Assembly (NCBI GenBank): GCA_963677495.2
Contig: CAXXOU010000004.1
Span: 1,441,726-1,505,725 of the forward strand
Direction of reading: 5' to 3'
Source: Candidatus Cloacimonadales bacterium
Lineage (GTDB): Bacteria; Cloacimonadota; Cloacimonadia; Cloacimonadales; JAFGVF01
Length of the DNA: 64,000 bases
This document shows positions 6,030 to 62,354 of the stretch, one piece after another. The position numbers and the translations under genes were made by a program. The notes below the pieces were generated by a model. The model ran no database searches and was not told the origin of the DNA. It was given only the letters and a program-made list of their open reading frames with translations. The stretch's first letter is position 1. Every line of letters starts with the position of its first letter.

Positions 6030-6482
6030 ATGAAAGCAAAAATGTATAAGTGGCTTAGGAATCTGGTTGGTAAATTAGACGGACTTGTTTATTACAACGA
6101 CCAGGTTATGGGTGAAGTTTTGGTTCGAGATTATGTAGAACCAACAAGAAGTGCAAGTAACGATAGACTTGGAAGAAACTCACTAAATATCAAACAATTC
6201 TACAGTAGTTGTAGCGAAGCATATCTGCGAGATCTTGGGATCTATGCCGTGATGATGAATCTTAGTCATATCCAAACAGGACATAAGCTGAATCGCTATA
6301 CCATGCTTACCAAGCTTCTGTATAAGCTCAAGAAGCTATATCCTGAAATTGATTTGGGTACGCTGACTCCTGAAGATGTTGTGAATCAAAGCTATCCCAT
6401 CGATTCTGTCCTGCATGCCATTATGAGTGGTATACTTGAACCTGTTACCGGTTTCCAGAATCTGGATAATGAGATTTTGTAG
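6030..6482 (+). CDS. Uncharacterised ~150-aa multicopy family, paralog A
   Basis: AAGGAGA RBS; shares GKxxxLVY, RxYVxP, YxxDLxxY, IDLxTxT and AIxxxxL motifs with four other ORFs in the window. Confidence 0.85.
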   Translation: MKAKMYKWLRNLVGKLDGLVYYNDQVMGEVLVRDYVEPTRSASNDRLGRNSLNIKQFYSSCSEAYLRDLGIYAVMMNLSHIQTGHKLNRYTMLTKLLYKLKKLYPEIDLGTLTPEDVVNQSYPIDSVLHAIMSGILEPVTGFQNLDNEIL

Positions 6483-7338
6483 TGCAACCGTAGTGCGAGT
6501 GTATCCGCTTACACAATGGTTTTCGTAGTGCAAGTGTCCTCACTTGCTCATAGCTCAATAGAGCTATAACCGGGAAGCTTATCGTGCTCAGTAACTAGTA
6601 TGACTTGTTTATTCATAAACTAATCACTACGTTTGAACGGATGATTTCTAAATCTGGGTCAGTGGAAGATGCCAACGATGTTGGCACAGCAACTCAGGAG
6701 AGTCGCAGTACAATCGTAGTGCGAGTGTCCCCACTTGCACATAGCTCGATAGAGCTATAACCGGGAAGCTGATCGTGTTCAGTAACTAGTATTGACTTGT
6801 ATATTCATAAACTTATCTCTACGTTTGAACTTACGTTTTTCAAGTTCCGGTCAGTGGAAATTGCCGACTGTGTCGGCACAGCAACTCAGGAGAGTCGCAG
6901 TACAATCGTTTTGGTCAGTGGAAGATGCCAACGATGTTGGCACAGCAACTCGGGAGAGTTGCAGTACAATTGTAGTGCAAGTGTCCTCACTTGCTCATAG
7001 CTCGATTGAGCTATAACCGGGAAGCTTATCGTGTTCAGTAACTAGTATGACTTGTATATTCATAAACTAATCTCTACGTTTGAACGGATGATTTCTAAAT
7101 CTGGGTCAGTGGAAGATGCCGACTGTGTCGGCACAGCAACTCGGGAGAGTCGCAGTACAATTGTAGTGCGAGTGTCCCCACTTGCACATAGCTCGATAGA
7201 GCTATAACCGGGAAGCTGATCGTGTTCAGTAACTAGTATGACTTGTATACTTAACTCTACGTTAGAATTTATTGTTTTTAAGTTTTGTCAATGGCATTTT
7301 AAATTGGTACAGTTTGGCATTTAAAAATGGTACAGTCT

Positions 7339-8070
7339 TCATTTTTGAAAATTCCTTAGTCTAAAGCTATCTCCGAGCATTGTAATTGGTTGTGAGTGAT
7401 GGAGTAATCTATCAAGAATAGCAGTTGCTATCACATTGTCGTTAAAAATAGCTCCCCATTCATTAAACAACCTATTCGATGTTATGATTACTGATCTAAA
7501 TTCGTATAAGAGATGGATGAGTCTAAAGAACAGATTAGCTGCCTTTGTCTGGAGAGGAAGATACCCCATCTCATCTATAACTATCAGATCATTCTTGGCT
7601 ATATTGCTTAGATATTTATCTATGTTGTTATCTGCTTCAGCTAGTACAAGTTCTTCGATAAGGTTGTTCAGATTATAAAACACCACCTTATAGCCTGCCT
7701 TTATTGCTTCATAACTGAGTGCTGTTGCAACATGAGTCTTACCTACTCCCGGAGGTCCCATTAAAATTATATTCCTCCTCTGCTCCAGCCAGACAAAGTT
7801 CTTCCACTCCTTTACTTGTCTTTTGGTTATTACTTGTTGATAAGCATAGTCGAACTCATCAAAGGTCTTTATTACCGGGATGTGAGCCTGTTTAAGTCTT
7901 CTGTTGATATTGGTTTGATTCCTTCCTGAGTTCTCTTTTTCAAATAGATAATGTACGAACTCCAGATAAGTCATATTCTGTTTCTCTGCTTCTAAAACTG
8001 CACTTTCAAGAGTATTCAAAATATGAGTACAACGAGCCCTTTTGATGTATGTTTTAGTTATCTCTATCAT
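7339..8070 (-). CDS. istB: IS21 helper AAA+ ATPase
   Basis: Walker A GPPGVGKT, LIVIDEMGY, AILDRLLHH, GDSFR. Confidence 0.96.
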   Translation of the reverse strand: MIEITKTYIKRARCTHILNTLESAVLEAEKQNMTYLEFVHYLFEKENSGRNQTNINRRLKQAHIPVIKTFDEFDYAYQQVITKRQVKEWKNFVWLEQRRNIILMGPPGVGKTHVATALSYEAIKAGYKVVFYNLNNLIEELVLAEADNNIDKYLSNIAKNDLIVIDEMGYLPLQTKAANLFFRLIHLLYEFRSVIITSNRLFNEWGAIFNDNVIATAILDRLLHHSQPITMLGDSFRLRNFQK

Positions 8071-8071
8071 C

Positions 8072-9547
8072 TTATAACACCTTCATGTAGTCATCTAATG
8101 AGCGCTCTATTAATGAACTCTCTGAGTCTTGTTGTGGTTCTGATTCTGATAATTCATTTAGCTTCATTTGTCTTACTTTTGCATTCAGAAGCTTCTCTAT
8201 GGCTGTTGCCTTTACATGCGAAAGAGTCATTACCTCAGGAAGCACTGACTCCCATACATCTGTTTCATAGTTACGCTTAAACTTGCTTAAGGCTCTCAAC
8301 TGATCCCTTGCTATTTTAGGGTTATCATTAACAAGCCTCTGGATTAGTTCTTCTCCTTGGATATATTCACTCATCTCATCCTTTACTCGCTCAATAAGCT
8401 CTTGTAGCACTACCGTAAAATCCCGATAATGATTAGTGTTTTTGATGATTTTGCCTTTTTCTGTGCATAGCTCATGTTGGCAGATTTCCTTTCTTGTATA
8501 AATATCCATCACCACTAAAGTGCTCTTTTCTTTTTGCACATATACCTGTTTTCGCTGATACTCTAATGGAACAGAGTACTTATTACCCTCATACGAGATT
8601 AAGCCTGTTTTATCTGCATTACGAACTTCTAAAGTGAAGATAAACTCTGGAATATCTTTTAGCTTTAACCTCTCTTCTTGCCATACTTCTGATGGTACTT
8701 TACGGGTTGTGCCATGGGTTCTGCCGTTAAAGTGTAAAAGCCACTCAAGTCCGCGTGAACGCAGGTCTGCCAGGTCTTTGAACTCTTTGCCATACATAAA
8801 GCCATGCTTTACTTCTGAGACATTACGCTCTACTTTACCCTTGCTTTGTGGATCATAGCCTTCGCATACATGAGGATGAAAGCCCGTTTTTGCTGCAAAC
8901 TGATGGAACTGATTATTTAAGATTACTTCCCGATAGCGTTCCTGTATTACTACAAGCTTTGTCTGGTCGTAAACACACTCTGAAGGGATACCTTCAAAAT
9001 AGATAAAAGCTTCACGATGAGCTTCAATAAACCTTGATGTGTTATATGGTGTTGTGCTCCAATGGACATAGCTTTGACGCGAGTGGGAAAGCACAAAAAC
9101 TATAAAATAAACTCTTTGACGTTTATTACCCAAAACTACTTTCATCTCACCTGGATCAACTTGAACCTGAACACCGGGAGCCGTCTCGATAACTGCATAA
9201 TTACGGTATTTATCGACAGGATAAGTCTGCTTTAGCTTACGAACAAAATCTCGGAAAGCTCTGTCTTTTGCTTTTATCTCAGGGAACTTTTTCTTAACTT
9301 CTAAATATAGTACACTAGCTCTTAATCGTGGATATTTGCTAAGCCTTTCGCGGACATATTGCTCACATATGGCAAAACTGCTTTCACGAATGCTATTGTT
9401 TATTAGTTCCATGAACTCATCAAGTGTCATATTTATGTATTTACCTACTGTTGTCTTTGATAGAGACAACTCCTCTGCGATCTTACGCTGACTATGCCCT
9501 TGCTTATGCATAGTTTTTATTGAATGATACACTTCTACTCCAATCAT
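8072..9547 (-). CDS. istA: IS21 DDE transposase
   Basis: N-terminal HTH (SQRKIAEELSLSKTTV), ETAPGVQVQVD, YDQTK, PQSKGKVER; start refined to MIGVEV after a GGAG RBS. Confidence 0.95.
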   Translation of the reverse strand: MIGVEVYHSIKTMHKQGHSQRKIAEELSLSKTTVGKYINMTLDEFMELINNSIRESSFAICEQYVRERLSKYPRLRASVLYLEVKKKFPEIKAKDRAFRDFVRKLKQTYPVDKYRNYAVIETAPGVQVQVDPGEMKVVLGNKRQRVYFIVFVLSHSRQSYVHWSTTPYNTSRFIEAHREAFIYFEGIPSECVYDQTKLVVIQERYREVILNNQFHQFAAKTGFHPHVCEGYDPQSKGKVERNVSEVKHGFMYGKEFKDLADLRSRGLEWLLHFNGRTHGTTRKVPSEVWQEERLKLKDIPEFIFTLEVRNADKTGLISYEGNKYSVPLEYQRKQVYVQKEKSTLVVMDIYTRKEICQHELCTEKGKIIKNTNHYRDFTVVLQELIERVKDEMSEYIQGEELIQRLVNDNPKIARDQLRALSKFKRNYETDVWESVLPEVMTLSHVKATAIEKLLNAKVRQMKLNELSESEPQQDSESSLIERSLDDYMKVL

Positions 9548-10320
9548 ACCTACTCCAAACTGTCTTGAAGTAGTCATTTTTAAAGGTTGGCAGTTTTGTA
9601 CCACTTTTCACTGCCATCGTGTACCATTTCTCACTGCCATTGACAAAGTTTTGGTCAGTGGAAGATGCCAACGATGTTGGCACAGCAACTCAGGAGAGTC
9701 GCAGTACAATCGTTTTGGTCAGTGGAAATTGCCGACGATGTTGGCACAGCAACTCAGGAGAGTCGCAGTACATCGTAGTGCGAGTGTGTCCCCACTTGCA
9801 CATAGCTCGATTGAGCTATAACCGGGAAGCTTATCGTGTTCAGTAACTAGTATGACTTGTATATTCATAAACTAATCACTACGTTTGAACGGATGATTTC
9901 TAAATCTGGGTCAGTGGAAGATGCCGACTGTGTCGGCACAGCAACTCGGGAGAGTCGCAGTACAATTGTAGTGCGAGTGTCCCCACTTGCACATAGCTCG
10001 ATAGAGCTATAACCGGGAAGCTTATCGTGTTCAGTAACTAGTATGACTTGTATACTTAACTCTACGTTAGAATTTATTGTTTTTAAGTTTTGGTCAGTGG
10101 AAGATGCCAACGATGTTGGCACAGCAACTCAGGAGAGTCGCAGTACAATCGTTTTGGTCAGTGGAAATTGCCGACTGTGTCGGCACAGCAACTCAGGAGA
10201 GTCGCAGTACAGTACAATCGTAGTGCGAGTGTCCCCACTTGCACATAGCTCGATAGAGCTATAACCGGGAAGCTGGTCGTGCTATGGAATTAGTATGGAC
10301 ATGAAAAAACCACAAATACA

Positions 10321-10356
10321 TTGACTTATATCATTATAAATTGGTATTTTAAAATC
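10321..10356 (+). promoter_or_regulatory. Putative sigma70 promoter giving a leaderless RAYT mRNA
   Basis: TTGACT-18 nt-TATTTT-AAAATC-ATG, with no RBS. Confidence 0.5.
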
Positions 10357-10941
10357 ATGAAAAGGTTTAATGAGTATCACAAAAGGCTCCTCCCTCATAT
10401 TCAAGAATATGGTGGAGTTTATTCAATAGTATTTAGACTTGCTTGGTCTATCCCTGTTGCTAAGTTGAAAGAAATAAGTATTGAGAAAAGACCCAATAAT
10501 GATACTTGTTACTTCACTAAGTTTGATAATTATCTAGATACATGTTCAACTCCCAATTGGTTACTAAACCCCAAAATTGCTAAATTGGTGGAGAACACTA
10601 TTCATTTCCATGATAATGGAAAGTATTTAGCAATAGCTTTTTGCATAATGCCAAACCATGTGCATTTAATTCTTGAACCTTTGTTTAAGAACAAAGAAAC
10701 TCCTTTTGCACTAACAGAAGTTTTGCACTCAATCAAGACTTATACTGCAAAGGAAGGAAATAGGATTCTAGGTAGAAAGGGACAATTCTGGTCTCATGAA
10801 AGCTATGACCATTTGATAAGAAATGAAAAAGAACTCTACAATCAAATCGAGTATTTGAAGAACAATCCTGTCAAAGCAAAACTGGTTGCTGATCAGGATG
10901 ATTGGGAGTATACTTGGGTTGCTGAAGATATTGAATTGTAA
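10357..10941 (+). CDS. REP-associated tyrosine transposase (RAYT, Y1 HUH family)
   Basis: LPH N-terminal motif, HUH in CIMPNHVHLI, FWSHESYDHLIR, catalytic-type Y in EYLKNNPVKAKLV; flanked by REP arrays. Confidence 0.92.
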   Translation: MKRFNEYHKRLLPHIQEYGGVYSIVFRLAWSIPVAKLKEISIEKRPNNDTCYFTKFDNYLDTCSTPNWLLNPKIAKLVENTIHFHDNGKYLAIAFCIMPNHVHLILEPLFKNKETPFALTEVLHSIKTYTAKEGNRILGRKGQFWSHESYDHLIRNEKELYNQIEYLKNNPVKAKLVADQDDWEYTWVAEDIEL

Positions 10942-11597
10942 CTAGACGCATTTAAGATATATTCTAAGTTCCGGTCAGTGGAAATTGCCAACGATGTTGG
11001 CACAGCAACTCGGGAGAGTCGCAGTACAATTGTAGTGCGAGTGTCCCCACTTGCACATAGCTCGATAGAGCTATAACCGGGAAGCTTATCGTGTTCAGTA
11101 ACTAGTATTGACTTGTATATTCATAAACTTATCTCTACGTTCGTACTTATGGTTATTAAGTTTCGGTCAGTGGATATTGCCGACTGTGTCGGCACAGCAA
11201 CTCAGGAGAGTCGCAGTACAGTACAATCGTAGTGCGAGTGTCCCCACTTGCACATAGCTCGCAGAGCTATAACCGGGAAGCTAATCGTGCTCAGGAACTA
11301 GTAATGACTTGTATACTTAACTCTACGTTAGAATTTATTGTTTTTAAGTTTTGGTCAGTGGAAGATGCCAACGATGTTGGCACAGCAACTCAGGAGAGTC
11401 GCAGTACAATCGTTTTGGTCAGTGGAAGATGCCAACGATGTTGGCACAGCAACTCGGGAGAGTTGCAGTACAATTGTTGCGGTCAGAGAGTTACACGACA
11501 ACATCCATGAAAAAAAGCTTTTCAAAATAGAAAGTTTTAAAAGTTTGTACGATAAGCAGATTATAGAATTGAAATCCTGCTAATCGTTGGAGGAAAA

Positions 11598-11903: not shown

Positions 11904-11926
11904 ATTTTAACATAAATGGAGCATAA

Positions 11927-23972: not shown

Positions 23973-24425
23973 TCACACTATCTCATGACTCAATTCATCA
24001 ATATACTTAACTTCGGGTAAAAGCTCATTCTCAATAGCCATTTTAACTGTCTGTACGGGTAGATTCTCCAGCACTATTACTTCCGGGGTTATGGTTATCA
24101 AATCGATGTTAGTAAAAACTCTTTTCATCGCATACATCATCTTTAGAAAGACATTGTAGGGATGATAATAGCAATTGTTTCCCATTGTTTCCAGATTAAG
24201 TTGAGTTGCATACTTCAGCAGATCATTCCTATAGTCTTCCGATGTTCCTTTGTAACATAGAGCAAGATTAGCAGATCTTGATCCCATCGTCGTATTGTTA
24301 GCTGTCAGACGAGGTTTAACCCAAGCTCTAGCAAGCAATACATCGCTTTTCCTATAGCGATAGAAAACAAGTTTGCCTATCTTCCCAACTAATGTCCGGG
24401 CTATCGTATCCAAATTCACTCTCAT
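23973..24425 (-). CDS. Uncharacterised ~150-aa multicopy family, paralog B
   Basis: AAAGGAGA RBS; LVGKIGKLVFY, RAWVKP, YRNDLLKY, IDLITIT, TVKMAIENELLP. Confidence 0.87.
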   Translation of the reverse strand: MRVNLDTIARTLVGKIGKLVFYRYRKSDVLLARAWVKPRLTANNTTMGSRSANLALCYKGTSEDYRNDLLKYATQLNLETMGNNCYYHPYNVFLKMMYAMKRVFTNIDLITITPEVIVLENLPVQTVKMAIENELLPEVKYIDELSHEIV

Positions 24426-24970: not shown

Positions 24971-25498
24971 GACCTAATGTTTTTTTATGGAGTTTGTCAG
25001 ATGCGTAGCCTGCGAAGCGAAAACGGACTTCATTAAAAAACAGGTAAATCATTGCCGAAAGATACACTCCCACAGGTAGATTTCACGTACCCGAAACGAA
25101 GCCCACCTGTAGCTACCTACGCGAGGGCTACGGGTGGGCTACGGGAGACCTACGAGAGGGTTTGCCGGATTAGGCAGAGATTTGGTACACAGTCGCTTGT
25201 CACATGGGTTGTGCATCCCTAAATTTGATTTAGCTCTAGAGAGGTAAAAGATGAGTGAGATTTTAAATTGTCCGATGAAGCAATGCAAAAAAATGAAAAA
25301 AAAAATACTTGCCATGTAATTTATCATTACTAAAATTGTTACACAATTCTAGGAAAGAAAGACAAAAGTTGATTCACTGTAGGTATGGGAAGGTAAAATA
25401 ATCATACTATATGTTGTTTAGGTTTATCAAAATTACATATATATAGTATGCATAATCATGAAAGTCTAATAAGCGAATCGTACAACAAAGGAGCATTT

Positions 25499-26242
25499 AT
25501 GAAGAAATTTGTCTTAATTGCATTAGTACTGTCAACAGTGTTGTTTCTTGTAGCAAATGAACTATCTGACAGGGAGCTTGAAGAACAAGCATTAAAGGAT
25601 ATGTTGAGCACACTTCAATACACCGCAGGAAGCCGTTTTGGAAATGATTTGAAGGTTGGAGATAAGGTTGTCTATCATGTCAATACCGACTTCTCAAGTG
25701 AAAATCAAAGCGAAGAGTTTGTCAGCTTAGAAGTAATTGAAGAGTCGAGTAAAGGTATTGTTATTAAGGAATCTTTTGATAGGAATATAACTTACACAAC
25801 TTGGGACCCTGTTTCTAATCAGATAGTCGATTTTTATGGTTATGATGAAAATAGGTGCAAGCAAACACCAAAGCTATTACACAAGAGCGAGGTTGAAGCT
25901 AATTTCAGTTTAGTTAAATCACAGGCATCTGCATTAATACCTTTCAGTTTTTCTCAAAATGACAGAGCAGAATATGCTGTCTCGGTTAACTCCAGAGATA
26001 TAACCTGCTCAAAAGTAAATATGGAAATACCTGAAATGTTTAAGCAAAAATTAGCTCAGGACCAACTTGATCAGATTGAAGAAGAATCAGCTATGTACTT
26101 TTCTGACGAGATCCCTAAGTTAATCCCATTTGTTGAGGTTACACTGAGTATGTTGAATTCTCTTGAAACCTTAAATCAACAAAACAAAGGTTTTGTGAAG
26201 AATAGCGTGCTTGAATTAATTGAATTTAGAAAAGGAAATTAA
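25499..26242 (+). CDS. Secreted hypothetical protein
   Basis: AAAGGAG RBS, then MKKFVLIALVLSTVLFLVA signal peptide. Confidence 0.75.
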   Translation: MKKFVLIALVLSTVLFLVANELSDRELEEQALKDMLSTLQYTAGSRFGNDLKVGDKVVYHVNTDFSSENQSEEFVSLEVIEESSKGIVIKESFDRNITYTTWDPVSNQIVDFYGYDENRCKQTPKLLHKSEVEANFSLVKSQASALIPFSFSQNDRAEYAVSVNSRDITCSKVNMEIPEMFKQKLAQDQLDQIEEESAMYFSDEIPKLIPFVEVTLSMLNSLETLNQQNKGFVKNSVLELIEFRKGN

Positions 26243-26244
26243 TT

Positions 26245-27252
26245 ATGCGGTTTATAAAATCATTAGCGATACTATTGCTATTACTTCTTATAACCTCCTG
26301 TTATGATTATTCAGATGAGGGTAAGTACTGGTACGAAGAATGGACTGCTACAATGAATATTGATGGAAGTGAGATTGATTACCTACTAAAAGGTGCTCAA
26401 ACTCCTTTCTATGTGGCAGACTTAAGTAATCCAGGGCAGGAAAAGATTATCATGAGCAGTTCCAATTCGGTTTATTCACTCAATCCTGAAGGAACTTTAT
26501 GGGAAGGTATCTTATTAGATGTAGGGAATATTGTCGAAATAAGTCAGGACAGAACTAAAATGGTAATGGAGTACAATTATGATATCTATGTTGCTAATGT
26601 TGACGGGTCGAATCTAATACAGATTACTAATACCCCTGATATCAGAGAGCATGATGCTTCAATTTCTGCTGATAACTCACAAATTGTCTATAGTCGATAT
26701 ATTAATAATCAAGATGTTCGCTCTGAGACTCTGTTTATATATGATTTGACCAATAATACCGAAACAGAGCTAATAAGGGAAGAGAATGACAATTACATTA
26801 ATATTAGTGATAAATGTATTGTTTCAGATAAAGTTTTTTATTTGATTTCAAGTTCTCCCGATGTCAAACCGGATGGGCTATATTGTTATGATATAATTAC
26901 AGGTATTGATAGCCTTGTTTATAACGATAACTCGCTTGTTGATATAATAACAGACTATGAAAATTCTGTATATCTTTTACAGGCTTCACGCACTCTTTTG
27001 CAGATAGACATCAATAGCTATGATTCTCAGGTTCTGTATATTGAACCCACTCAGAGATATTATAACGCCTTAGTGTTAGATCCATCCAAAGAAAACATTT
27101 GTCTATGCGATTCTGGAGGGTTTGCCCTTATGTATTTCTTACAGACTGGTGATTTTATAAATTTTGGGCATGAATTAGGAAAAGTCTCATTTAATAAGAA
27201 CAGCACAAGAATAATAAGTATGATTGAAAGAAGACATCCAGATGATTTTTAA
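26245..27252 (+). CDS. TolB-like beta-propeller lipoprotein
   Basis: Lipobox ITSC; DIYVANVDGSNLIQIT..ASISADNSQIVYS PD40-like repeat. Confidence 0.75.
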   Translation: MRFIKSLAILLLLLLITSCYDYSDEGKYWYEEWTATMNIDGSEIDYLLKGAQTPFYVADLSNPGQEKIIMSSSNSVYSLNPEGTLWEGILLDVGNIVEISQDRTKMVMEYNYDIYVANVDGSNLIQITNTPDIREHDASISADNSQIVYSRYINNQDVRSETLFIYDLTNNTETELIREENDNYINISDKCIVSDKVFYLISSSPDVKPDGLYCYDIITGIDSLVYNDNSLVDIITDYENSVYLLQASRTLLQIDINSYDSQVLYIEPTQRYYNALVLDPSKENICLCDSGGFALMYFLQTGDFINFGHELGKVSFNKNSTRIISMIERRHPDDF

Positions 27253-27262
27253 AGGAGAAACC

Positions 27263-30200
27263 ATGAAGAAATTTTTTTTAGTATCCATATTATTACTTAT
27301 AAATATATTTTTCCTGTTTTCGGTTTATGATACCGAATACAGTCATGTTAATGGTAAAAGTCATGAGTGGCAGCAAGCCGGACTAGAAAGTGGGTTTCCA
27401 ACCAATTTTGTCGATGAGTATTTTGATGATACTGATACTGAACTTGCTATTAGAACTGCAATTTTAAATGCAGGAGATTCAGATGAAACTCATAGAATTA
27501 TTTTTTCTCCAGGAGTTTATACTTTTACACAAACACTTGTAGTGGGTGATTATGTCATTCTTAGAGGTAATCACATGTTCAAGGATGGAGGGAATAATGC
27601 TAACAGAACGGTTTTTCAGTTTGATTTGGCAAATACTAATAATTGCATAGAAATCAAGGGAGTAGAAGAGAATCTAAACTCATCTCCACCTGTACAAGAG
27701 CATATATTGGTCTCTTCCGGTATTGAAGATATTGTAATTGAACGAATAGATACTACACATTCTCATGGATTGAGTAGTCAGCAAGGACATAACATTCTTA
27801 TCCAAAAAGCGTCAAACTGCTGGGTAGTCGGGGTTGAGAGTCGAAATCCCGTTAAGCATCATATTGATATTGCTCAAAGTAATCATATAGAAATAACCGG
27901 TTGCTTTTTTGATGGAGCTCAAGATGTAGGTTCGGGTGGATTTGGATATGGTGTAATCACCGAAAATGCATCTCAGTACTGCTTGATAGAGAATAACATC
28001 TTTCGAAGTATGAGACACGCGATGCTAGTGCAAAATGAAGCCAAATGGAATGTTTATGGATATAATTATTCAACAGGAAGGAGACATTCTGATTTTAATG
28101 ATATACCTGATTCTTATGTTGCGGATATTAGCTGCCATGGGGAAACAAGTTCTCAAAATAATGGTCCCTATAGCGGCCCTAAAGAAAACCTTTTTGAAGG
28201 AAATCAAGTAGGTTGGATGTGGGTAGATTCCTTTCATAGAGCTAATGGCAAAGACAATGCTTTCTTTAGGAATCGGTCTTCCGATAAAGGCTTATGGATA
28301 ATGGGAGTCGGTACATGGGGGCTTGGTCCATAGGGACCTTCTGCATTTATACCGAGTTTGTTAGAAATGCTAATGAGTTGCTCGGACGCTTGCGACTGGG
28401 TTATGCAACCCAGACAAATCACAAATTACAATTATCTTCGAAATTTAAACTGGTTTCAAAGCAATTACTTAAAGTTCCCGAGAAGGTTTAGAAGTTATTT
28501 TAAACCATTCGAACGACATAATCGAATAAAAAAAGTTTCTTTTTTTGGGTTTACATATACTCAAACATGGTCATATGGTATTCCATATTGTGCGTCCAAT
28601 AAAGTAAAATATGATCAATCATACTACCTTGAAAACAGGTCAAGTGCTCCTGGATTTTGGTATTCCAATCAAAGTTGGCCATATAATCCAGAAGATGATA
28701 ATAATGCAGCAAAGCAAAGATACCAAAATTACTTAAAGAAAACTATTTCTCGATATGATGATAATTCATTCGACCAAAATTTCTATATCACCCACGATAT
28801 GACTTTCCCCGACGATATTATTGATCATGGAACATTAGGAAATCTATATGTATCTTTAGGTGAAGATAATTTAGGAAGGCCACATTCGAAGATTAGCATA
28901 CCAGAGAATACACAGCTTGTTATTCAATCCCTTAATTCGAATGAAGATTTAAATATATCTATTGAGCAGTTCTGTGGTATTGCTGTGCTTGGTCGTATCA
29001 AAATTATTGGCACTGAAAATAATCCTGTATCTTTAACCGGGATTGAAGGTAATAGCTGGAAAGGTATTAACTTCTTTTCATCTGAAAGTTCAGCTGACTC
29101 TGAATTCAGAAATGTTAATTTTGCGGATGCGAGAACTGCTGTTTGTATTGGCACTACTTCTGGTTTTGATGTAGCAGGCAAGAATATTCTATTTGATAAT
29201 TGTAACTTTTTATCCTGTGAAGCTGAAGGAAACACTCAAAATGTACCTGATTCTCATACTGGGGGAGCAATAATTATTAGAGCAACAACAGAAACAGAAA
29301 TAAATGTTGATTTTAGTAAGTGCAAATTCGAAAATAATACTGCTTATTTGGGAGGAGCAGTATATATTGATAGTCATGAATATTCTAATAATGAACTTGA
29401 TGAAGCAAGAGTACAAGTAAATTTTGACAACTGTGAGTTTATTAATAATGATGCAGTCGAGGGAGGTGCTATATGGTGCCAACATGCTGATTTAAGTGTT
29501 GTAAATTGTTATTTTGAAGGGAATGGGAAGGTGACAGGATTCGAAAGTACATCCCCTGCGATAAATTCAAACTGTGCAGGAGGTGCCGTTTTTCTTTTTG
29601 AAAGTGATTTAACTTTCCGAAAAGAGTTTGTATCAAATGTGTTTGTTGATAATTTCTCATATAACGGTGGAGCATTCTATATTAATGGAAGAAATGGGGA
29701 ATTACAAACAAACAACAGAGGGCCTATATTGTTTGTTAATAATACTTTTACCCAAAATAATTCAATTAATTGGGGAGGGTGTTTTTATCAGGATTTACCT
29801 TTTTCAACTTACAACTTTGTAAATAACATCTTTAGTAATAATACTGCGAATATTACTAGTGGATCAACAGATTTTCTTGTTAGAGCAGCTCTCCCTATAA
29901 CTCCAGCATTATTTTTCACTCATAATGCTTTTGATACCGGGATTAATGGTGGAATTGTAACGGGTTATTACGATTTTTACGAAACTGAATTCACCCCTTG
30001 GCCAAGAACTTATACTACTGTAAACTCAGTCGTTGGTGGAATTAATATAGTAGATGATTTTCGAATTTCAACTAATTCATCATGTTATAACTCTGGTTCA
30101 TCAGTAGAAGATATTGAAACATTATATGAAATGGAGTTAGCTTTCCCAGATACGGATGTCTTGAATAACCTTCGAGTCCTTGCGGGGAATATTGACATAG

Positions 30201-31741
30201 GTGCTGTTGAATATTTTCAAGATGGAGCTGCTGTATCAACTTCAAATACAGAGATCTACTATGGAAATATTATACCTGATGGAGGATATGTTAAAGAAGT
30301 TTGGATTCGTAACAATTCAGACCAAAATAATCTTCATATTACTTCATTTACAGTCAGTGATGAAATAAGTAATGTTATAGAAATTATTTCACTTCCAAGT
30401 GTTATTCCTCCAAGTGATAGTCTTTGCTTCAAAGTAAAGATCACTCCAAAGAAAATGTACGAGGATTACTATGGAGAGTTGTCTATAAATACGAATGATA
30501 TATATAATCCTGAAATTGTGATTCCTATTTCAGCCTCAACGGCATTACAGAGTGGGTGGAACTGGATTTCATTCCCATATTTATTTGTAGGGGCTGATAA
30601 TGATGATATTTTCGAATTGATTGACCCGTTTGGTCTGTCCATAAAAAGCAATGATGGAGGATTGAACTACATAAATAACCAATGGGTTCTTAGTAATCCA
30701 AGTTTTAGCTTTTCGCCTCTATCTTGTTACAAATTGTCAATGAATAAAGATGATGTACAATATTGTATTCAGTTCAGTGATGGTTATGAAATTCAAAATC
30801 AAGGAATCACTTTGGACCCCGGAGTTGATAATTGGGTTGGTTATTGGAGAGATAGTCAGGACATGGATACAGCCTTTGGCGATGATTTTAACAAAGTAAC
30901 ATCTATAAAATCAGAACTTTGGTACTATCAACCGGATTCTCCCCCAAACTCGCAAACAAAAGATGACCCAACGATACCAATAAGTCATAATATCAGACCG
31001 TTAAATTTCGGTAGAGGTTATATAGTGAGAGTGAATGAACGAATTGAAGATTTTAGATGGAATCTAGGAACTCAAGTACCAACAAAAAGTGCTGTGATTG
31101 TAAAAGAATCTGATACATTTGTATATGAAAAGAGCGATGATTATGAAGCTATAGATATAATTGGTATTGATGAAAGCGTTGTAGAGATAGGTGCATTTAT
31201 CGATGATGTTTGTGTTGGTTCAAGCTTTGTTGAGGATGGTAAAACCCAAATACTAGCATACACAGAAATAGCGTCTGCAAAATCAAACCCTCAAATCCAT
31301 TTTGAATTGATCACACAACAGAAAGATCGAAAAATCATGAATAACTATTTCGTTTACAATGAAGATACAGAATGGTTTGTAGATGAGCCAATACAAGCAT
31401 TCACTACCGACTACCATTTAGTCAGTTTTGATAAGGATTTTAATGATGGTTTTACTATTCCAAAGTGGGTTGAGCTAAGTAACAATTATCCAAACCCATT
31501 CAATCCAACAACAACAATCTCATTCTCAATTCCAAAAGAGACTATGGTAAAACTTTCTGTCTATAATATTAAGGGACAGAAAGTCGCTACATTAGTTAAT
31601 GAAACTATGTCCATTGGAAGGCACGAAATAGTGTGGGATGGAAAAAATAGTTTAGGTAAAGAAACAGGGTCAGGAGTTTACTTCTATAGATTAGAGACTT
31701 CTAAGAAATCAATTACAAAGAAAATGCTGTTACTTAAATAA
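27263..31741 (+). pseudogene. Large secreted beta-helix (pectin-lyase-like) protein with FlgD/T9SS-like C-terminal domain, interrupted by one in-frame TAG at 28331-28333
   Basis: ORFs 27224-28333 and 28358-31741 are in the same frame (offset 1134 = 378 codons). The 5' part has the RBS and signal peptide (MKKFFLV); the 3' part lacks both and has GGAI/GGAV repeats, IDIGAVE and NYPNPFNPTTTISF. Confidence 0.72.
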
Positions 31742-32541: not shown

Positions 32542-33003
32542 ATGAAAGTAACAATGTGCTTCCCGTTCCTTACATGGAGCGGATCCCGAGACAAAACAAC
32601 CTATGCAGCTTTGCATGATGATGCAGTTTGCATTGCAAAAGAGTATTCAGCTCCGCCTTATTCCAGTCAAAACCAAACAATGGGACTTATATCAAAGAAC
32701 CTTGGAACCGTTTACGATAGTTTCGATTCCGGTTGGATTGATGATCTCAAAACCTATACCCAACGCTTTGAGACTGATGTTGTAGGTAAGTTCGACATAC
32801 CCCCTACATATTACGCTCTCTATAGCAAGATGTGGTGGAATGTCCATAAGGATGATCCAACTATTGACCTGAAGACTGTTACATTTGCTGATATCCAACT
32901 CTTGGATATCGGGATTCAAACAGTGAAGGATGCGATTGATAATGGCTTCCTTCCTAAGGTCAGCAAGTATGATGATCTTACAAACAGCTACAATGGTGGC
33001 TAA
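32542..33003 (+). CDS. Uncharacterised ~150-aa multicopy family, paralog C
   Basis: AGGAGG RBS before MKVTM; WIDDLKTY, KMWW, PTIDLKTVT, TVKDAIDNGFLP. Confidence 0.87.
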   Translation: MKVTMCFPFLTWSGSRDKTTYAALHDDAVCIAKEYSAPPYSSQNQTMGLISKNLGTVYDSFDSGWIDDLKTYTQRFETDVVGKFDIPPTYYALYSKMWWNVHKDDPTIDLKTVTFADIQLLDIGIQTVKDAIDNGFLPKVSKYDDLTNSYNGG

Positions 33004-33017
33004 GTAAACTAAGTAAA

Positions 33018-52150: not shown

Positions 52151-52164
52151 AATTTACTCCTTTA

Positions 52165-54071: not shown

Positions 54072-54072
54072 G

Positions 54073-56287: not shown

Positions 56288-56301
56288 AATTTACTCCTTT
56301 A

Positions 56302-56457
56302 CAAATATTATAAGAATAAGTAATCTACCATTGCAAAATACGGGCTTCAATGCCCAATGTACTGTACAGACTAAGCGGAAGGTGGGCTTAACATTCGAAA
56401 CGAGTTTAATGACTCAATGGTCTTATAGCTTATTCACCTTCCCTTATTCTTAATGTC
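56302..56457 (-). ncRNA. Putative bridge RNA of IS110 copy 2
   Basis: Same sequence as 52165-52320. Confidence 0.8.
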
Positions 56458-56629
56458 TGTTTATTTCTCTTATTTTATTTGGTGTCAACTATACAATGGT
56501 CCCTAGACCTTCGAAATGGTGCTCTTGTTATTCCTTACTCGTGTAAGGGAGCCTTCAAACGATGGGTGTTTTCTCCGAATTGCACCATTTGCAAGGTCTC
56601 GCAAACTCAACCATTCCAAAGGTACGATC

Positions 56630-57085
56630 TCATTCCACAATCCAATGCGTCAGGTCATCATACCGTGGAATCATTGGTAGCAACTCATGTTCGATTGCTT
56701 CTTTAACTGTCCTTACCGGTAATCCGGTATCTACAACTACTTGTGGGGTCACTGTTAACAAATCAACGGGATAGCCATCTTTCTTAAGTTTAAACATCAT
56801 CTTTCGTAACAATGCCGAATAACTCGGTGGTCTGCATTTGTGTCGGTAACTTAGTTTGTACCTGTCTGTGTAATCTTTCAAATCATTAATATACTCCGGA
56901 TTGAGAAGTTCTTTGTAAACTGCGAGTTGTTTGGAAACGCTACCCATGTAGTGGTTATGTTCTGTTAACTCTGGCATCACGAACTCTCGTACCCACATGA
57001 TATTTCCATCTTCGTCACAGCAATACACAAGCTTCCCATGTTTACCGGACATCGATTTGAAAGGGAATCCTAAATAACTTTTCAT
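56630..57085 (-). CDS. Uncharacterised ~150-aa multicopy family, paralog D
   Basis: AAGGAGA RBS before MKSYL; SGKHGKLVY, REFVMP, YINDLKDY, VDLLTVT, TVKEAIEHELLP. Confidence 0.87.
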   Translation of the reverse strand: MKSYLGFPFKSMSGKHGKLVYCCDEDGNIMWVREFVMPELTEHNHYMGSVSKQLAVYKELLNPEYINDLKDYTDRYKLSYRHKCRPPSYSALLRKMMFKLKKDGYPVDLLTVTPQVVVDTGLPVRTVKEAIEHELLPMIPRYDDLTHWIVE

Positions 57086-57644: not shown

Positions 57645-57743
57645 CATTTTACATTTAGCTATAGGCTTTAGGCTATAAGCTACTAGCTGTGAGACCTCGT
57701 CTCACTCCCCCTTGCTCACAAAACCCTCATTTTACTCACAAAA
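57645..57743 (-). repeat. ~95-bp inverted repeat, left of the defence cassette (upstream module of paralog D)
   Basis: Reverse complement of 61586-61684 with few mismatches. Confidence 0.88.
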
Positions 57744-58170
57744 CCCCAAACTTTTTTCAAAAACCCCAATTATATTTACATCTTGCCCTTTGAAATCTGC
57801 ATTCAGCATTCAGCATTCAGCATTCAGCATTTAGCATTTCGCATTTTGCATTTTGCATCTTGCATCCTCTTTCCCTCTCTACTCTCAGCAGTAATTATTG
57901 CTTGCAAATAAATTCTAACTTATTAACAAATTGGTCACTTCTTGGTATTTAACCCAAGGATTACCCAAGTGTTTCACAAGGGTTTCCCAAGTGTCTCACA
58001 GGAATTACTGCCGGGAGATGAGGGAGAAATGAAGGGAACTTGCGTGGTTTAATAAACTTTAGGGAAAAAGTTAAAAAGTTTCTTGACTTAGTAATCAGTA
58101 AATTATAAAATATATATACTGTCATAAAATAGGGTAAAATTAGAGAAAGTAGAATGATTATTAATCATTA

Positions 58171-59232
58171 ATGGAGAGAAATATGTTCTCATCTATAAGT
58201 TTAACAGATGATACAGTTAAGAATGGACCACCAGTCAAACCTCTTGATAGGATTAAATTGTTTAGTCCCGATGAATGGGAGAAGTTTGTTGAAGAGTGGC
58301 TTTCAACATTGAAGAGTAAGTATCTTAAAGTTGATAGATTAGGTGGATCTGGTGATAAGGGGAGGGATGTAGTTGCAACAATTAACCAATCAGGAGATTG
58401 GGTTAATTATCAATGTAAGCACTATGATCATGCTCTTTATCCATCGGATATTTGGCTAGAAATAGGAAAGCTAGTTTATTATACCAAAATTGGAGACTAT
58501 ACATACCCAAGCAAATATTACTTTGTTGCTCCACAGGGTATTGGAACATCTGTTTATGATTTATTGAATAATCCTAATACAATGAAACGTAAGATATTAG
58601 AAAAATGGGACAAGAATTGTAAAAATAGAATCACTAGAAATGGTTCTGTCCACCTTGATAAATCACTAAAAGAATACATAGACAAACTTGATTTTACCAT
58701 ATTTAGCTATGTTAAACCACTTGAGTTAATAGAGCAGTTTAAAAAAACAAATAATTATACTGCTTGGTTTGGAAATGGCTTACCTGAACGCCCAAAAAAT
58801 AATGAGCCACCCAAAGAGCCATCCGAGAGGGAAACAACATATATTAGAAAACTGCTTGATGCCTACAGTGACTTTAAATGTTTCAAGGTCTCTTCATTAT
58901 TAGATTTGAAAGATCAGGAATTAATTGAACACTTCATGGACTCTCGTATAGAATTTTACTGTGCAGAATCATTAAAAAGATTCTCAAGGGACACTCTACC
59001 GTCAGGAGTTTTCGAAAGATTACAAAATGAAATCTATAATGGAATCAAAGATGAACTAAGAAGAAAACATACCGATGGGTATGAGAAAGTGTTAAGTGTA
59101 ACAAAAACATCTAAACTTATTCAAATCGATAGTCATCCTCTTAAATCATGTTTATCTATAAATGATCGTAGTGGAATCTGCCATCAATTAGCAAATGATA
59201 GAGAAAATGTTAAGTGGGTAAAAGATGAGTAA
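58171..59232 (+). CDS. Lamassu/ABC-3C effector: Mrr-like PD-(D/E)xK nuclease plus C-terminal domain (LmuA-like)
   Basis: DEWEKFVEEW, GGSGDKGRDV...YQCKHY nuclease motif; C-terminal DRSGICHQLAND. Confidence 0.8.
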   Translation: MERNMFSSISLTDDTVKNGPPVKPLDRIKLFSPDEWEKFVEEWLSTLKSKYLKVDRLGGSGDKGRDVVATINQSGDWVNYQCKHYDHALYPSDIWLEIGKLVYYTKIGDYTYPSKYYFVAPQGIGTSVYDLLNNPNTMKRKILEKWDKNCKNRITRNGSVHLDKSLKEYIDKLDFTIFSYVKPLELIEQFKKTNNYTAWFGNGLPERPKNNEPPKEPSERETTYIRKLLDAYSDFKCFKVSSLLDLKDQELIEHFMDSRIEFYCAESLKRFSRDTLPSGVFERLQNEIYNGIKDELRRKHTDGYEKVLSVTKTSKLIQIDSHPLKSCLSINDRSGICHQLANDRENVKWVKDE

Positions 59233-59722
59233 TTCAAAAACAATAACGCAACCGTTAAATAGTCCAATTGAACTAGGAGTTAGGGCATTGATTCTCTTAA
59301 TTGAATGCTTTCCTCAAAAATTAAGCTTGCAACAATTAGTAGCATTAGATTACATTCTTGTTCATTCTGATGACTTTTCTGGGGGTCCTAAAAGCATTCA
59401 TCCTAAACTACCAAGAAGGAGTGGAGAGTTTCTCATTAAAAGGAAAATTATACGTAATGGTTGCATATTATTCATTAAGAAAGGGTTAATTAATCAGGTA
59501 TTTACATCTGATGGGATAAAATATGAAGCATCAGAAAGTTCTGTTAATTTTCTTGATTCTTTAACAACGGAATACATTTCAGAGTTAAGGGATAGGAGTC
59601 ATTGGGTTATTAGTTACTTAGGCGACCAAAGTGAAAATAGTCTGAATAAAGAAATACTGAGCAAAATGGATGAATGGGGATCAGAATTTACAATGGAATC
59701 AGTTTTATGGGAAGGGTTTTAA
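59225..59722 (+). CDS. ABC-3C middle component (LmuC-like)
   Basis: NSPIELGVRAL...LDYILVHS.D..GGPKSIHP..RSGEF; lies between effector and ATPase. Confidence 0.78.
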   Translation: MSNSKTITQPLNSPIELGVRALILLIECFPQKLSLQQLVALDYILVHSDDFSGGPKSIHPKLPRRSGEFLIKRKIIRNGCILFIKKGLINQVFTSDGIKYEASESSVNFLDSLTTEYISELRDRSHWVISYLGDQSENSLNKEILSKMDEWGSEFTMESVLWEGF

Positions 59723-59723
59723 A

Positions 59724-61574
59724 ATGGAATATAAAGGTTTTAGGTTAAGGAAATTAACACTATCAGGAGAAAAAGTAAAAAATGCGGAAGTTTGTTTTAA
59801 AAATGGCTTAAATCTAATCATCGGTCCATCTGATACTGGTAAATCATTCATCTTCCAATGTGTAGACTATTTGCTTGGAAGCTCAACTCCACCTAAAAAT
59901 ATTGATGAGTTAGATGGATATGAGATGATATCATTAGAAATTGAGATTTCATCTAAAATGAAAAATGTAATTCTCCAACGAAGTATAAGACATGGTAAAA
60001 CAATAACGATTTTAAATTTTAAAGAAGAACCTTATCCTGTAAAGTCTACCCATCAAGCTAAAAATTTTGATAATATTTCACACTTTCTACTTAGCTTTAT
60101 TGGTCTTACGCAGAAGAAGATAAAATTTAAAGCAAACAAAACACAAAATTTTACTTTTCGTAGAATAGCTCCCTTAACTATGGTTTCTGAAGAAGACATT
60201 ATTAAGGACACTTCTCCATTTTTATCTGGACAGTTTACTTCTGTAACACCTGAGAAACATGCACTTAAACTACTACTGACAAATGATGATGACTCTTCAA
60301 TTAGAGACTTCGATGATATTAAAATTATTAATGCAAATACTAATGGCAAGAAGGAGTTATTGAATCTGCTAATTGAGACTCAGCTGCAAAGTTTTAAGCA
60401 GTTGAAAATCAATTTAAATCTAGAAGAAATGGAAGATGAACTTAAAGCATTAGAAGCTAAATCCCAAGAAGCATCTAGCTTGAGCAATTCTTTAACACAA
60501 ATGGCTAATGAAAAAGAGTGTAAAAGGAATGCCGTTCTTAATGAACTTAGAATACAGAATACACGTGTTAGTATATTAGAAGAGTTGAAGACAAAATTTT
60601 CATTACTAGAAGAACAATACAAATCTGATATCAATCGACTCAAAGCAATTAATGAAACCACTAATCTACTAAGCAGTATTGAAGTAAATCACTGCCCAAC
60701 TTGTGGAGCTGAAAGGGATCATTTTGAGAAGGAAAATGCAAAATACGATTTCAATCCAGATGAAATGTCAATTTCTTGCAAAGCCGAGAAAAATAAGATT
60801 ACGTTGCTACTAAATGACCTTAAATTAGCTATAAAAGATATTGATTCAGAGTATAAGAACTTAATAGAAAACAGAATGAGAACAAAAGAAGAACTTAGTT
60901 TAATTGAGGAAGAACTTACGGTGTTCTACAAAACTAAAATTGAAGATATCTTGAACGACTTAGAAGTTATTAAAGATAGAATCATTGTGCTAAACAAAGG
61001 AGTTTCCTTTTTACAAAGAATAAATGAACTAGATGAGCAACTTAGGGTAATACCAGACGGTATTAAAATATCAAAACAAAGTAATTCAGATCAAATTATA
61101 GCACCAAATAAGATGAAAGAGCTGTGTGAAATGATAGAAGAGTTAATAAAACTATGGCAGTGCCCAGACATGAATAGTGTCATATTTAACTATAAATCAT
61201 TTGATATAGTCATATCTGGAGCAGAAAGAGCTAGTCATGGGAAAGGAGTTAGGGCTATTATGCATTCTGCAGTCACACTAGGATTGTTAAAGTATTGTAT
61301 TGCTAATAATTTATCACATCCTGGATTTGTAATCCTTGATTCTCCACTTCTAGTATATCAGGAGTCTAAAAGAGACAATAATGAAAAAAATTATAGTGAT
61401 AATGTGAAATGTTGCTTTTATAATGACTTAGCTAAAAACTATAAGGATCAGCAAATAGTAATTATTGAAAATGAAGTGCCACCAGAGTTTATTATCAATG
61501 ATTCTTCAGTTAATATAATCAAGTTTACAGAACCTATATATGATGGATTTATCCCATTTAATGAAAAAAAATAA
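59724..61574 (+). CDS. SMC/Rad50-like ABC ATPase (LmuB-like)
   Basis: Walker A GPSDTGKS, coiled coils with central CPTC zinc hook, SHGKG signature region, VILDSP Walker B, IIENE. Confidence 0.85.
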   Translation: MEYKGFRLRKLTLSGEKVKNAEVCFKNGLNLIIGPSDTGKSFIFQCVDYLLGSSTPPKNIDELDGYEMISLEIEISSKMKNVILQRSIRHGKTITILNFKEEPYPVKSTHQAKNFDNISHFLLSFIGLTQKKIKFKANKTQNFTFRRIAPLTMVSEEDIIKDTSPFLSGQFTSVTPEKHALKLLLTNDDDSSIRDFDDIKIINANTNGKKELLNLLIETQLQSFKQLKINLNLEEMEDELKALEAKSQEASSLSNSLTQMANEKECKRNAVLNELRIQNTRVSILEELKTKFSLLEEQYKSDINRLKAINETTNLLSSIEVNHCPTCGAERDHFEKENAKYDFNPDEMSISCKAEKNKITLLLNDLKLAIKDIDSEYKNLIENRMRTKEELSLIEEELTVFYKTKIEDILNDLEVIKDRIIVLNKGVSFLQRINELDEQLRVIPDGIKISKQSNSDQIIAPNKMKELCEMIEELIKLWQCPDMNSVIFNYKSFDIVISGAERASHGKGVRAIMHSAVTLGLLKYCIANNLSHPGFVILDSPLLVYQESKRDNNEKNYSDNVKCCFYNDLAKNYKDQQIVIIENEVPPEFIINDSSVNIIKFTEPIYDGFIPFNEKK

Positions 61575-61585
61575 AAAACTTTACC

Positions 61586-61684
61586 ATTTTGTGAGTAAAA
61601 CGGGCATTTTGTGAGCAAGGGGAAGTGAAACGAGGTTTCACAGCTAATAGCTTATAGCCTAAAGCCTATAGTTAAATGCAAATC
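61586..61684 (+). repeat. ~95-bp inverted repeat, right of the defence cassette (upstream module of paralog E)
   Basis: TTTTGTGAGTAAAA..TTTTGTGAGCAAGGGG..GTGAAACGAGGTTTCAC..AGCTTATAGCCTAAAGCCTATAG. Confidence 0.88.
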
Positions 61685-61892
61685 ATAATTACTAACATCA
61701 GATGAAATCCGTATCAGTGATACATTACTGAACCCTCACCAGTCTTCGCGTAAAGCTACGCCCTGACTGGCCTTAATCCTCTCCCCGAAGGGGCGAGGAG
61801 ATTGATGTTGAATACCTAACTGCAGAAGGGTAAATACACAAAAGGGTCGCGTAGGAGAGTTGATCACTCCTAGACGATAATGGTAATCCAAA

Positions 61893-62354
61893 ATGGAAGT
61901 GTTCATGATGGAACCCTTCGAAGCCTTCTCAGGAGTGATGGGTAAACTCGTTTACTCAGCATTCAATGAAGGACACATCTGCTTCAGCAGAGAGTATGTA
62001 ATCCCAACTCCTACTGATAACACAGCAAAAATGGGAGATGTTGGAGAAAACTTAGCCATAGTATATGATAGTTTTGATAGTGGCTGGGTTTCAGATCTCC
62101 AAAAGTACACAAAACGTTATGCAAAAGACTGTCAAACTCGTTACCAAAGACACCCGGGCTTCTATGCCATGTATGGTAAGATGTGGTGGAAGGTAGTTAA
62201 AGATGATCCCACAATTGACTTGAGAACAGTAACATTCGCAGATATTCAACTCCTTGATATTGGAATCCAAACAGTTAAAGATGCCATTAATAATGGCTTC
62301 CTTCCTAAGATCAAGAAATTCGATGACTTAACCAATACCTATAATGGAGCGTAG
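61893..62354 (+). CDS. Uncharacterised ~150-aa multicopy family, paralog E
   Basis: SGVMGKLVY, REYVIP, WVSDLQKY; C-terminal third almost identical to paralog C. Confidence 0.87.
   Translation: MEVFMMEPFEAFSGVMGKLVYSAFNEGHICFSREYVIPTPTDNTAKMGDVGENLAIVYDSFDSGWVSDLQKYTKRYAKDCQTRYQRHPGFYAMYGKMWWKVVKDDPTIDLRTVTFADIQLLDIGIQTVKDAINNGFLPKIKKFDDLTNTYNGA

Follow-up and report, generated by a model that had tools for sequence, protein, structure and literature searches.

The stretch of DNA analysed here (the window) comprises 64,000 nucleotides, positions C4:1441726-1505725, of the 3.41-Mb, four-contig genome of Candidatus Cloacimonadales bacterium (G000). It contains five copies, named A to E, of a gene for a small uncharacterised protein; loci elsewhere are given by contig and position (contigs C1, C3 and C4) or by an L-number. 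Copy A (6030..6482, + strand; 150 amino acids, isoelectric point (pI) 7.8), identified by its translation and a profile match, is of basic type and unpaired. Copy B (23973..24425, − strand; 150 amino acids, pI 9.0, basic) and copy C (32542..33003, + strand; 153 amino acids, pI 4.7, acidic) are the left and right bookends of one slot of cargo genes, and copy D (56630..57085, − strand; 151 amino acids, pI 7.7, near-neutral to basic) and copy E (61893..62354, + strand; 153 amino acids, pI 5.3, acidic) are those of a second. The original prediction for this DNA had described all five as dispersed solo genes; it had overlooked that B/C and D/E are divergent pairs that frame cargo and that a Lamassu system lies in D/E.

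All five genes have stop-free translations, which can be aligned over their whole length and have 17 columns without any variation. B to E are 25–33% identical to A, and most paralogs in the genome are 25–35% identical to one another; C and E, whose DNA identity is 61% with a proportion of synonymous differences (pS) of 0.75, have a long C-terminal block in common. Every copy is a single-gene unit. Except in E, a strong AGGAG/GGAGG box lies 5–8 nt 5′ of the ATG of each copy, and a terminator formed by a hairpin and a T-run stands directly 3′ of the stop codon in C (33015-33041) and E (approximately 62360-62386). The ratio of nonsynonymous to synonymous substitution (dN/dS, by the Nei–Gojobori method; four ortholog and two paralog comparisons) was obtained for orthologs against the complete genome of a sister species (G001), which is approximately 75–80% identical in DNA to G000 in conserved blocks and which was the one complete sister genome compared. 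Orthologs gave 0.038 for A, 0.043 for D (87% identity over the coding sequence), 0.107 for the left copy of a pair on contig C1 and 0.106 for its right copy; among paralogs, C against E gave 0.075 and C against the left copy of a pair on contig C3 gave 0.074. Thus, the family genes are real genes under strong purifying selection (dN/dS 0.04–0.11), and five similar open reading frames (ORFs) are far beyond chance because the genome holds 22 full-length copies and the orthologs give dN/dS of 0.04–0.11. On these points the original prediction was borne out: five intact ORFs, a shared C-terminal block in C and E as it had quoted, no copy in an operon, a ribosome binding site in four, and purifying selection.

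The genome-wide count was made with a profile built from the five window proteins, which found 22 full-length copies, one of them with an in-frame TAA (C4:1070910-1071359), and three fragments. Ten of the 22 form five neighbour pairs, 4.8–8.1 kb apart: B/C, D/E, C3:291427/297242, C4:777582/782563 and C1:774903/781894. Random placement would give 1.3 neighbour pairs within 10 kb (P = 0.007 for five or more). In all five the left member is on the minus strand and the right member on the plus strand (P = 0.0009 on shuffled strands), and all five combine one acidic protein of 153 amino acids with one basic or neutral protein of 150–151 amino acids (P = 0.012 on shuffled types). The acidic proteins form a subfamily of seven copies (153 amino acids, pI 4.5–5.8) that includes C and E. 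Pairs of the same kind are present in the sister genome. Upstream of a sixth acidic copy, C4:1041429, at a distance of 390 bp, the C-terminal end of a minus-strand copy survives (L058:4442-4540, corresponding to C4:1040941-1041039), and this locus looks like a collapsed slot.

According to near full-length profile matches, D and E enclose a complete Lamassu system, with its three predicted components in one plus-strand operon. LmuA (58171..59232) combines an Mrr_cat nuclease with an ABC-3C CTD6 domain (PADLOC PDLC03852, 1e-115; Pfam CTD6, 3e-38, and Mrr_cat, 6e-5), LmuC (59225..59722) is the ABC-3C middle component 2 (PADLOC PDLC03871, 3e-50; Pfam MC2, 3e-47) and LmuB (59670..61574) is the SMC-like ATPase (PADLOC PDLC03863, 6e-147). 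The slot thus has all three genes known for Lamassu (LmuA/LmuB/LmuC; ABC-3C), together with the CTD6, MC2 and Mrr_cat domains, and the family proteins match no Lamassu model; Lamassu is the cargo of this slot and not itself the finding. The C3 slot holds a Dcm-type methylase, a 776-amino-acid GHKL ATPase and a 317-amino-acid protein, and the C1 slot an N6/N4 methylase, an LmuB-like ATPase of 690 amino acids and two genes of no assigned type. Four genes, one of them for a PIN-domain protein, lie in the slot at C4:777582 (C4:778.6-782.1 kb) and encode proteins of 438, 470, 132 and 142 amino acids. Slot B/C carries four plus-strand genes (25448..31741) for proteins of 264, 335, 369 and 1127 amino acids, the last with a C-terminal sorting domain of the type IX secretion system (T9SS). 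Cargo is 4–7 kb long, with a GC content of 0.29–0.32 in four of the five slots where the genome as a whole has 0.37. None of the cargo genes was found to encode a transposase or integrase domain.

The cargo differs between species. The C1, C3 and D/E loci all keep their family copies in the sister genome, at 75–89% DNA identity, although the E-like copy of its D/E locus survives as a remnant only. At the C1 and C3 loci, blastn alignment of the two genomes covers the family copies and approximately 110 bp upstream of them and leaves the cargo unaligned. In the sister genome the C1 locus contains PDC-S06 and an HD-CE/GHKL protein, the C3 locus PDC-M04A/B and three other genes, and the D/E locus a PDC-M28-like protein of 951 amino acids and one other gene. 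At three orthologous loci, therefore, the bookend genes are kept and the cargo is a different defence system. Over both genomes, six of the eight pairs contain a PADLOC match at E ≤ 1e-20. Two draft genomes of the same genus (G002 and G003) matched only in dispersed repeats, and the orthologous D/E locus was not found in them.

Between bookend gene and cargo lie the two arms of an inverted repeat, in four of the five slots here and in two of the three in the sister genome. The D/E arms (57648-57757 and 61573-61682) are 110 nt long and 86% complementary; each contains two TTTTGTGAG words, pointing to D on the left and to E on the right, and the right arm starts right where LmuB ends, at its stop codon. 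The B/C arms (24734-24797 and 32153-32216) are 64 nt long and 94% complementary, with TATAGTAGTAGAGG at the outer end of the left arm pointing toward B and a terminator-like hairpin (32123-32144) preceding the right arm; their sequence has just these two copies genome-wide and is not a dispersed repeat. Shorter inverted arms flank the C3 slot (L056:5750-5793 and 10616-10659; 44 nt, 84%) and the C1 slot (L059:5669-5704 and 11191-11226; 36 nt, 89%), and in the sister genome they were found in L071 (6031-6074 and 10515-10558; 44 nt, 86%) and L072 (4399-4456 and 8301-8358; 58 nt, 79%). Arms are kept at two of the three orthologous loci: the D/E arms are 85–88% conserved between the species around different cargo, and the C1 arms are likewise conserved.

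The arms are the upstream modules of the family genes. Each module consists of two direct-repeat words approximately 20 nt apart, a TATA(A/T)(A/T) element and an AGAGG-like box, with all parts pointing toward the family gene. It is present upstream of at least 7 of the 22 copies and of five of nine copies in another genus, and hardly anywhere other than upstream of family genes. The unpaired copy A has one as well (5745..5995, + strand), with TATAGTAGAGG twice, at 5745 (after a AACCGTAAGCTACG word) and near 5980. The pattern 'TTTYCAC twice plus TATA' has five matches in the genome, all upstream of and co-oriented with family copies, and 'TTTTGTGAG twice' has two, both in the D/E arms. TATA..TAGAGG stands within 800 nt upstream of 11 of the 22 copies, against approximately 0.2 expected, from 74 merged genome matches. 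A scan for the sigma-70 consensus did not single out the arms. In a genome of genus g6 (G014) the layout is the same with the word TTTGTCAC; there, five of six genome matches to TTGTCAC-N8-16-TTKTCA lie just upstream of five of the nine copies, the reversed control pattern having five matches. In another genome (G013) the module word is AATGCTCCCTC. Among the slots of G000 the words vary and they agree within each pair, whatever the protein type, and at the C3 locus both arms read TTTTTCAC in G000 and TTTATTCCT in the sister genome, alike in each species. Arms that are 84–94% alike stand beside proteins with an identity of no more than about 30%, which implies that both arms of a slot have evolved in concert.

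A bookend-pair architecture around exchangeable, mostly defence, cargo is therefore present in this genus. Our preferred reading, to which we give a probability of roughly 0.4, is that the family members are co-regulated small putative DNA-binding proteins that would frame hot-spot slots for acquired defence genes. According to this model, the proteins would bind the repeated words of the modules upstream of their own genes, as autoregulation or co-regulation, and the paired bookends with their matched arms would mark, and perhaps insulate or silence, the low-GC slot. The conserved genes and arms would provide the flanking homology through which horizontally acquired cargo, mostly anti-phage, is exchanged, and recombination between the arms would keep them alike. 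Nucleic-acid binding by the family is a reasonable guess. In a bolder form that we consider unlikely, the acidic and basic paralogs and the inverted arms would make up a docking platform, on which a two-protein clamp would define and insulate the slots and promote their exchange; the outcome would then be integron-like without an integrase or attC sites, and the protein fold one not seen before. A predicted heterodimer of D and E scored 0.00 ('no answer') and carries no weight either way.

Several observations weigh against the preferred reading. Structural matches of the family model to ribbon-helix-helix proteins were at noise level. An excisionase-type helix-turn-helix (HTH), considered for the C-terminal 'TV.EAVE.GLLP' helices, found no support: in hhalign, a profile of 133 family sequences compared with 28 HTH_17 segments gave a probability of 2.9% over 20 columns. 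The acidic pI of seven copies is unusual for DNA binders. One word is common to very different paralogs, and where the arms match the proteins differ, which a common trans factor would fit at least equally well. The slots themselves are not uniform, in that the B/C cargo is T9SS-type with a GC content near that of the genome (0.352) and has no defence match, the C4:777582 cargo has no match in PADLOC, the inverted repeat of that same fifth pair (L057) is weak, of heptad type and just 31 nt long, and L070 of the sister genome has no inverted repeat of 30 nt or more, though the word occurs on both sides. Twelve of the 22 copies are unpaired and lie among unrelated housekeeping genes with no conserved partner gene. 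Finally, outside the genus, bona fide defence matches within four genes were found at 7 of the 18 family loci and at 4 of 18 loci taken at random (P = 0.47; suggestive only, and one random control locus coincided with a family copy). Counted by gene, the figures are 19 of 133 and 4 of 119, respectively (P = 0.004), with the genes of one system not being independent of one another. Not counted as defence in this comparison were the ABC ATPases matched as 'mad3', radical-SAM proteins ('pVip'), Lon ('BrxL'), PolA ('RTasPolA'), TatD ('QatD'), ThiF ('E1-E2'), a GTPase ('LeoA'), a sigma-54 activator ('RtcR'), dGTPase and MotB ('ZorB'), which we take to be housekeeping proteins.

A rival account, which we regard as possible and as the closest competitor, is that the family genes are passive landmarks. 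The proteins would have a cellular role unrelated to the cargo (e.g. as a stress or structural protein in a shared regulon), core genes would happen to flank integration hot spots, and the arms would be two paralogous promoters kept alike by gene conversion. The 12 unpaired copies and the lack of significant enrichment by locus outside the genus fit this account, as does the finding that all 19 copies examined in two other genera (G013 and G014) are basic and either unpaired or in tandem. Hot spots flanked by unrelated core genes are also known (PMC10250203). It is less easily reconciled with the divergent orientation and the acidic/basic composition of all five pairs (P = 0.0009 and 0.012), with arms that are 84–94% alike beside genes only about 30% identical, with the joint change of words in the C3 arms between species, or with a right D/E arm that starts exactly at the LmuB stop codon.

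The precise delimitation of the cargo by inverted arms, and an identity of arms within pairs that implies ongoing exchange between them, could also be read as the signs of a recombination slot, in which the arms would be sites for a recombinase acting in trans (tyrosine, IS110-type or Y1/RAYT, that is, a transposase associated with repetitive extragenic palindromic (REP) sequences) that is encoded elsewhere and inserts, swaps or inverts the cargo, with the family proteins as bystanders or as factors that assist the enzyme or set its direction. A Xer-type tyrosine recombinase gene (62963-63880; Phage_integrase and SAM_1) lies 600 bp downstream of E, IS110 insertion sequences adjoin D, and 3 of the 14 Y1_Tnp-like genes of the genome (PF01797; no family copy is among them) lie within 4 kb of a family copy, against approximately 0.7 expected by our own arithmetic. 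We nevertheless think this explanation improbable: the other four slots have no recombinase inside or adjoining them, the ortholog of the Xer-type gene is located elsewhere in the sister genome, and each slot has arms of its own sequence, a variation that one site-specific enzyme could not be expected to accept. Arms of 36–110 nt and 84–94% complementarity in four of the five slots resemble the terminal inverted repeats of transposons and insertion sequences, which differ in that here no transposase or recombinase lies between the arms.

It is less probable still that the family is itself an immune component, such as a small protein that acts as a sensor or decoy or in abortive infection and that groups with defence systems, as defence genes do. 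In three genera, family copies do adjoin candidates for Lamassu, restriction–modification, type III-A CRISPR-Cas, Hma, PsyrTA, PD-Lambda-2 and PDC systems, and many diversified paralogs are present per genome. However, dN/dS of 0.04–0.11 and synteny point to core genes rather than to immunity genes of fast turnover, and the family genes stay while the adjoining defence cargo is replaced. Their GC content (0.38–0.42) is higher than that of the cargo, and the family proteins have no match in PADLOC, neither to Lamassu nor to other models.

The surroundings of the copies bear on the remaining proposal, in which they move. The ortholog of A lies at the syntenic place in the sister genome, where the order of the copy, a RAYT-like ORF and ileS is kept, and D and the C1 and C3 pairs occupy the same loci in both species. 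The IS21 copy at 7286-9645, between A and the RAYT-like ORF, is a G000-specific insertion that splits an array of REP type. In the sister genome the D ortholog lies approximately 400 bp from the ortholog of the window gene 50040-50642, between which and D an IS110-IS21-IS110 block (50781-56573) is inserted in G000. Its two IS110-family copies (50781-52437 and 54918-56573; direct, 1657 bp, 99.8% identical) flank a second IS21 (52498-54857), which is inverted relative to that at 7286-9645 and 99.9% identical to it. The 'islands' at A and D are thus largely IS21 and IS110 insertions. REP-type palindromes do surround the copies, as the original prediction described, but not specifically: repeat coverage (14-mers present six or more times) is approximately 0.16–0.18 in the 600-bp flanks of the copies and 0.20–0.26 in all 406 intergenic regions of at least 400 bp, 63–76% of which contain such repeats. 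REP-type repeats fill long intergenic DNA genome-wide and are therefore not anchored by the family. The idea that the copies spread as solo mobile cassettes, or anchor and mobilise REP-like islands, which their high number, the abundance of REP-type repeats and RAYT-like genes in the genome and the three copies with a Y1 transposase gene within 4 kb might suggest, is largely refuted by the orthologous positions of A, D and the C1 and C3 pairs, the age of the copies (25–35% identity between most paralogs), a flank repeat density not above that of other long intergenic regions, the presence of the family in all 88 genomes of one family of the phylum and the lack of terminal repeats around individual copies. 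A likeness to REP/BIME elements and their RAYT genes (REPtrons; BIME, bacterial interspersed mosaic element) extends to the REP-type repeats in the flanks and the 14 Y1_Tnp-like genes; the family protein is unrelated to Y1 (HUH) transposases, and the B/C arms are unique.

The slots can be compared with the core defence hot spots cDHS1 and cDHS2 of Pseudomonas aeruginosa, which are flanked by conserved genes (PMC10250203). As in those hot spots, conserved genes flank variable content rich in anti-phage genes, with no single type of mobile element explaining the cargo, and the same flanks in a relative (one sister genome) enclose differing, defence-containing content. The slots studied here differ from cDHS1 and cDHS2 in that both flanks are paralogs of one uncharacterised family, always pointing outward and comprising one acidic and one basic member, that matched inverted arms delimit the cargo, and that the slots are small (4–7 kb, one system) with several per genome.

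The bookend genes also call to mind regulators of variable or foreign DNA. UpxY and UpxZ of Bacteroides capsule loci are small paralogous regulators at the head of variable loci, and proteins of H-NS type are xenogeneic silencers. The likeness lies in the many small paralogs, each tied to a variable or acquired locus, and in the low-GC cargo. In contrast to both, no similarity of sequence or fold was found, the bookends are monocistronic, paired and facing away from the cargo, and their DNA binding is putative.

The family is new, conserved and restricted to a lineage, is found in Cloacimonadales and has its own cis module. Its profile matches 28 of 41 close relatives and 119 of 201 Cloacimonadota genomes sampled, with 1 to approximately 24 matches per genome. 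By family, matches were found in 88/88 genomes of f4, 9/10 of f1, 6/52 of f12, 0/8 of f2, 0/6 of f14 and 0/15 of f15, and a search of 301 genomes from another phylum gave none. Look-alikes in the ESM Atlas are Cloacimonadota clusters. When 1.84 billion cluster representatives were searched exhaustively with the profile, 360 matched at E ≤ 1e-3; among the 150 representatives listed, nearly all are stand-alone proteins of 140–165 amino acids, with one tandem duplication (P0149, 297 amino acids) and a few N- or C-terminal extensions of uncertain start. Fusions were sought among longer proteins (290–2000 amino acids) and none was found, which is weak evidence. The original prediction of a greatly expanded family therefore holds, with 22 copies here and, in many Cloacimonadales, anything from a single match to over 20 in each genome. 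Another genome of the same order (G027, family f7) has 23 matches in one survey and 18 in the other; these begin at profile position 13–14 within open frames of 185–200 amino acids, which points to a subfamily whose N-terminus is longer or of another kind.

That the protein is uncharacterised and has no catalytic motif was likewise upheld. The best match of the five proteins in Pfam, NCBIfam and PHROGs had an E-value of 0.019, all matches being far under the cut-off; 133 relatives searched singly against Pfam matched six unrelated families, one member each, at E above 0.002; and PDB sequences searched with the family profiles gave no match. The family alignment has no catalytic-looking invariant residues. 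PF12728 (HTH_17) matches three places in the genome, and the family copies are not among them. An AlphaFold2 model of copy D has a mean predicted confidence (pLDDT) of 94.3 and is compact, with three N-terminal strands and five helices, and no fold relative was detected with it; a first, weaker model (pLDDT 82) had no match above noise level in Foldseek searches of the PDB and the viral BFVD or in VIA wide. In a limited search of the literature on Cloacimonadota defence systems and Cloacimonas acidaminovorans gene families, neither the family nor the architecture was found.

The family is mostly basic, with a median pI of 9.1 for the 133 relatives. The acidic subfamily was found in just one other species-level genome record (L111, a Cloacimonadales metagenome-assembled genome). 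An Alphaproteobacteria stretch (L112) considered as a further match to this subfamily was spurious, as the profile did not confirm it. In G014, a type III-A CRISPR-Cas operon with Cas6, Cas10 and Csm3 is immediately preceded by two family copies in tandem (L079, G014:C1:964000-981000).

New immune systems are sought mainly in defence islands, but little is understood of what defines a chromosomal hot spot. The architecture described here is compact, repeated and sharply bounded, with flanks from one uncharacterised family that has its own cis element, and its cargo varies between species. If the bookends or arms do insulate, silence or exchange foreign genes, an uncultured phylum that matters in anaerobic digesters would have a way of handling cassettes not described before. 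Should they prove passive, the family profile and the layout of the arms would still be a simple search key for unannotated Cloacimonadota defence systems, for which the four genes at C4:777582/782563 and the genes without PADLOC matches in other slots are candidates. The family is in addition a good structural target, with a confidently predicted fold that has no relative in the PDB.

Further features were noted beside the slots and copies. In the C1 slot, a stretch of approximately 260 bp just inward of the right arm is 80% conserved between the two species (L059:10957-11213, L070:11284-11540), unlike the remaining cargo, and, by eye, may contain a small minus-strand ORF. A homolog of the B/C cargo in the sister genome (L073, G001:C1:1563000-1582999) is 87% identical, above the genome background, and shows tandem amplification of a pair of genes for proteins of 335 and 93 amino acids; it lies near, and not directly beside, a family copy. 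The 206-amino-acid ORF 10321-10941 adjoining copy A, which also stands beside the A ortholog in the sister genome, is probably a diverged RAYT, given a Y1_Tnp match of 20.6 bits, below the cut-off, at C4:1452337-1452588. A second multi-copy solo family is PF05635 ('23S rRNA intervening sequence' four-helix bundle), with members at 48081-48449 and, beside the copy at C4:777582, at L057:4616-4978. An Rfam scan of the window gave no family at the gathering score. At 36631-39465 the window encodes a T9SS-sorted protein of 944 amino acids with a CotH kinase domain and lamin-tail domains. Arrays of 7-bp-periodic words (AATGCTA/AATGCAA/GATGCAA) lie beside the D/E arms and downstream of E (57797-57866, 62430-62506 and 62760-62890), and similar arrays follow other acidic copies and a 'AGCTAATAGCTTATAGCC' element, of which the genome has approximately 19 copies.

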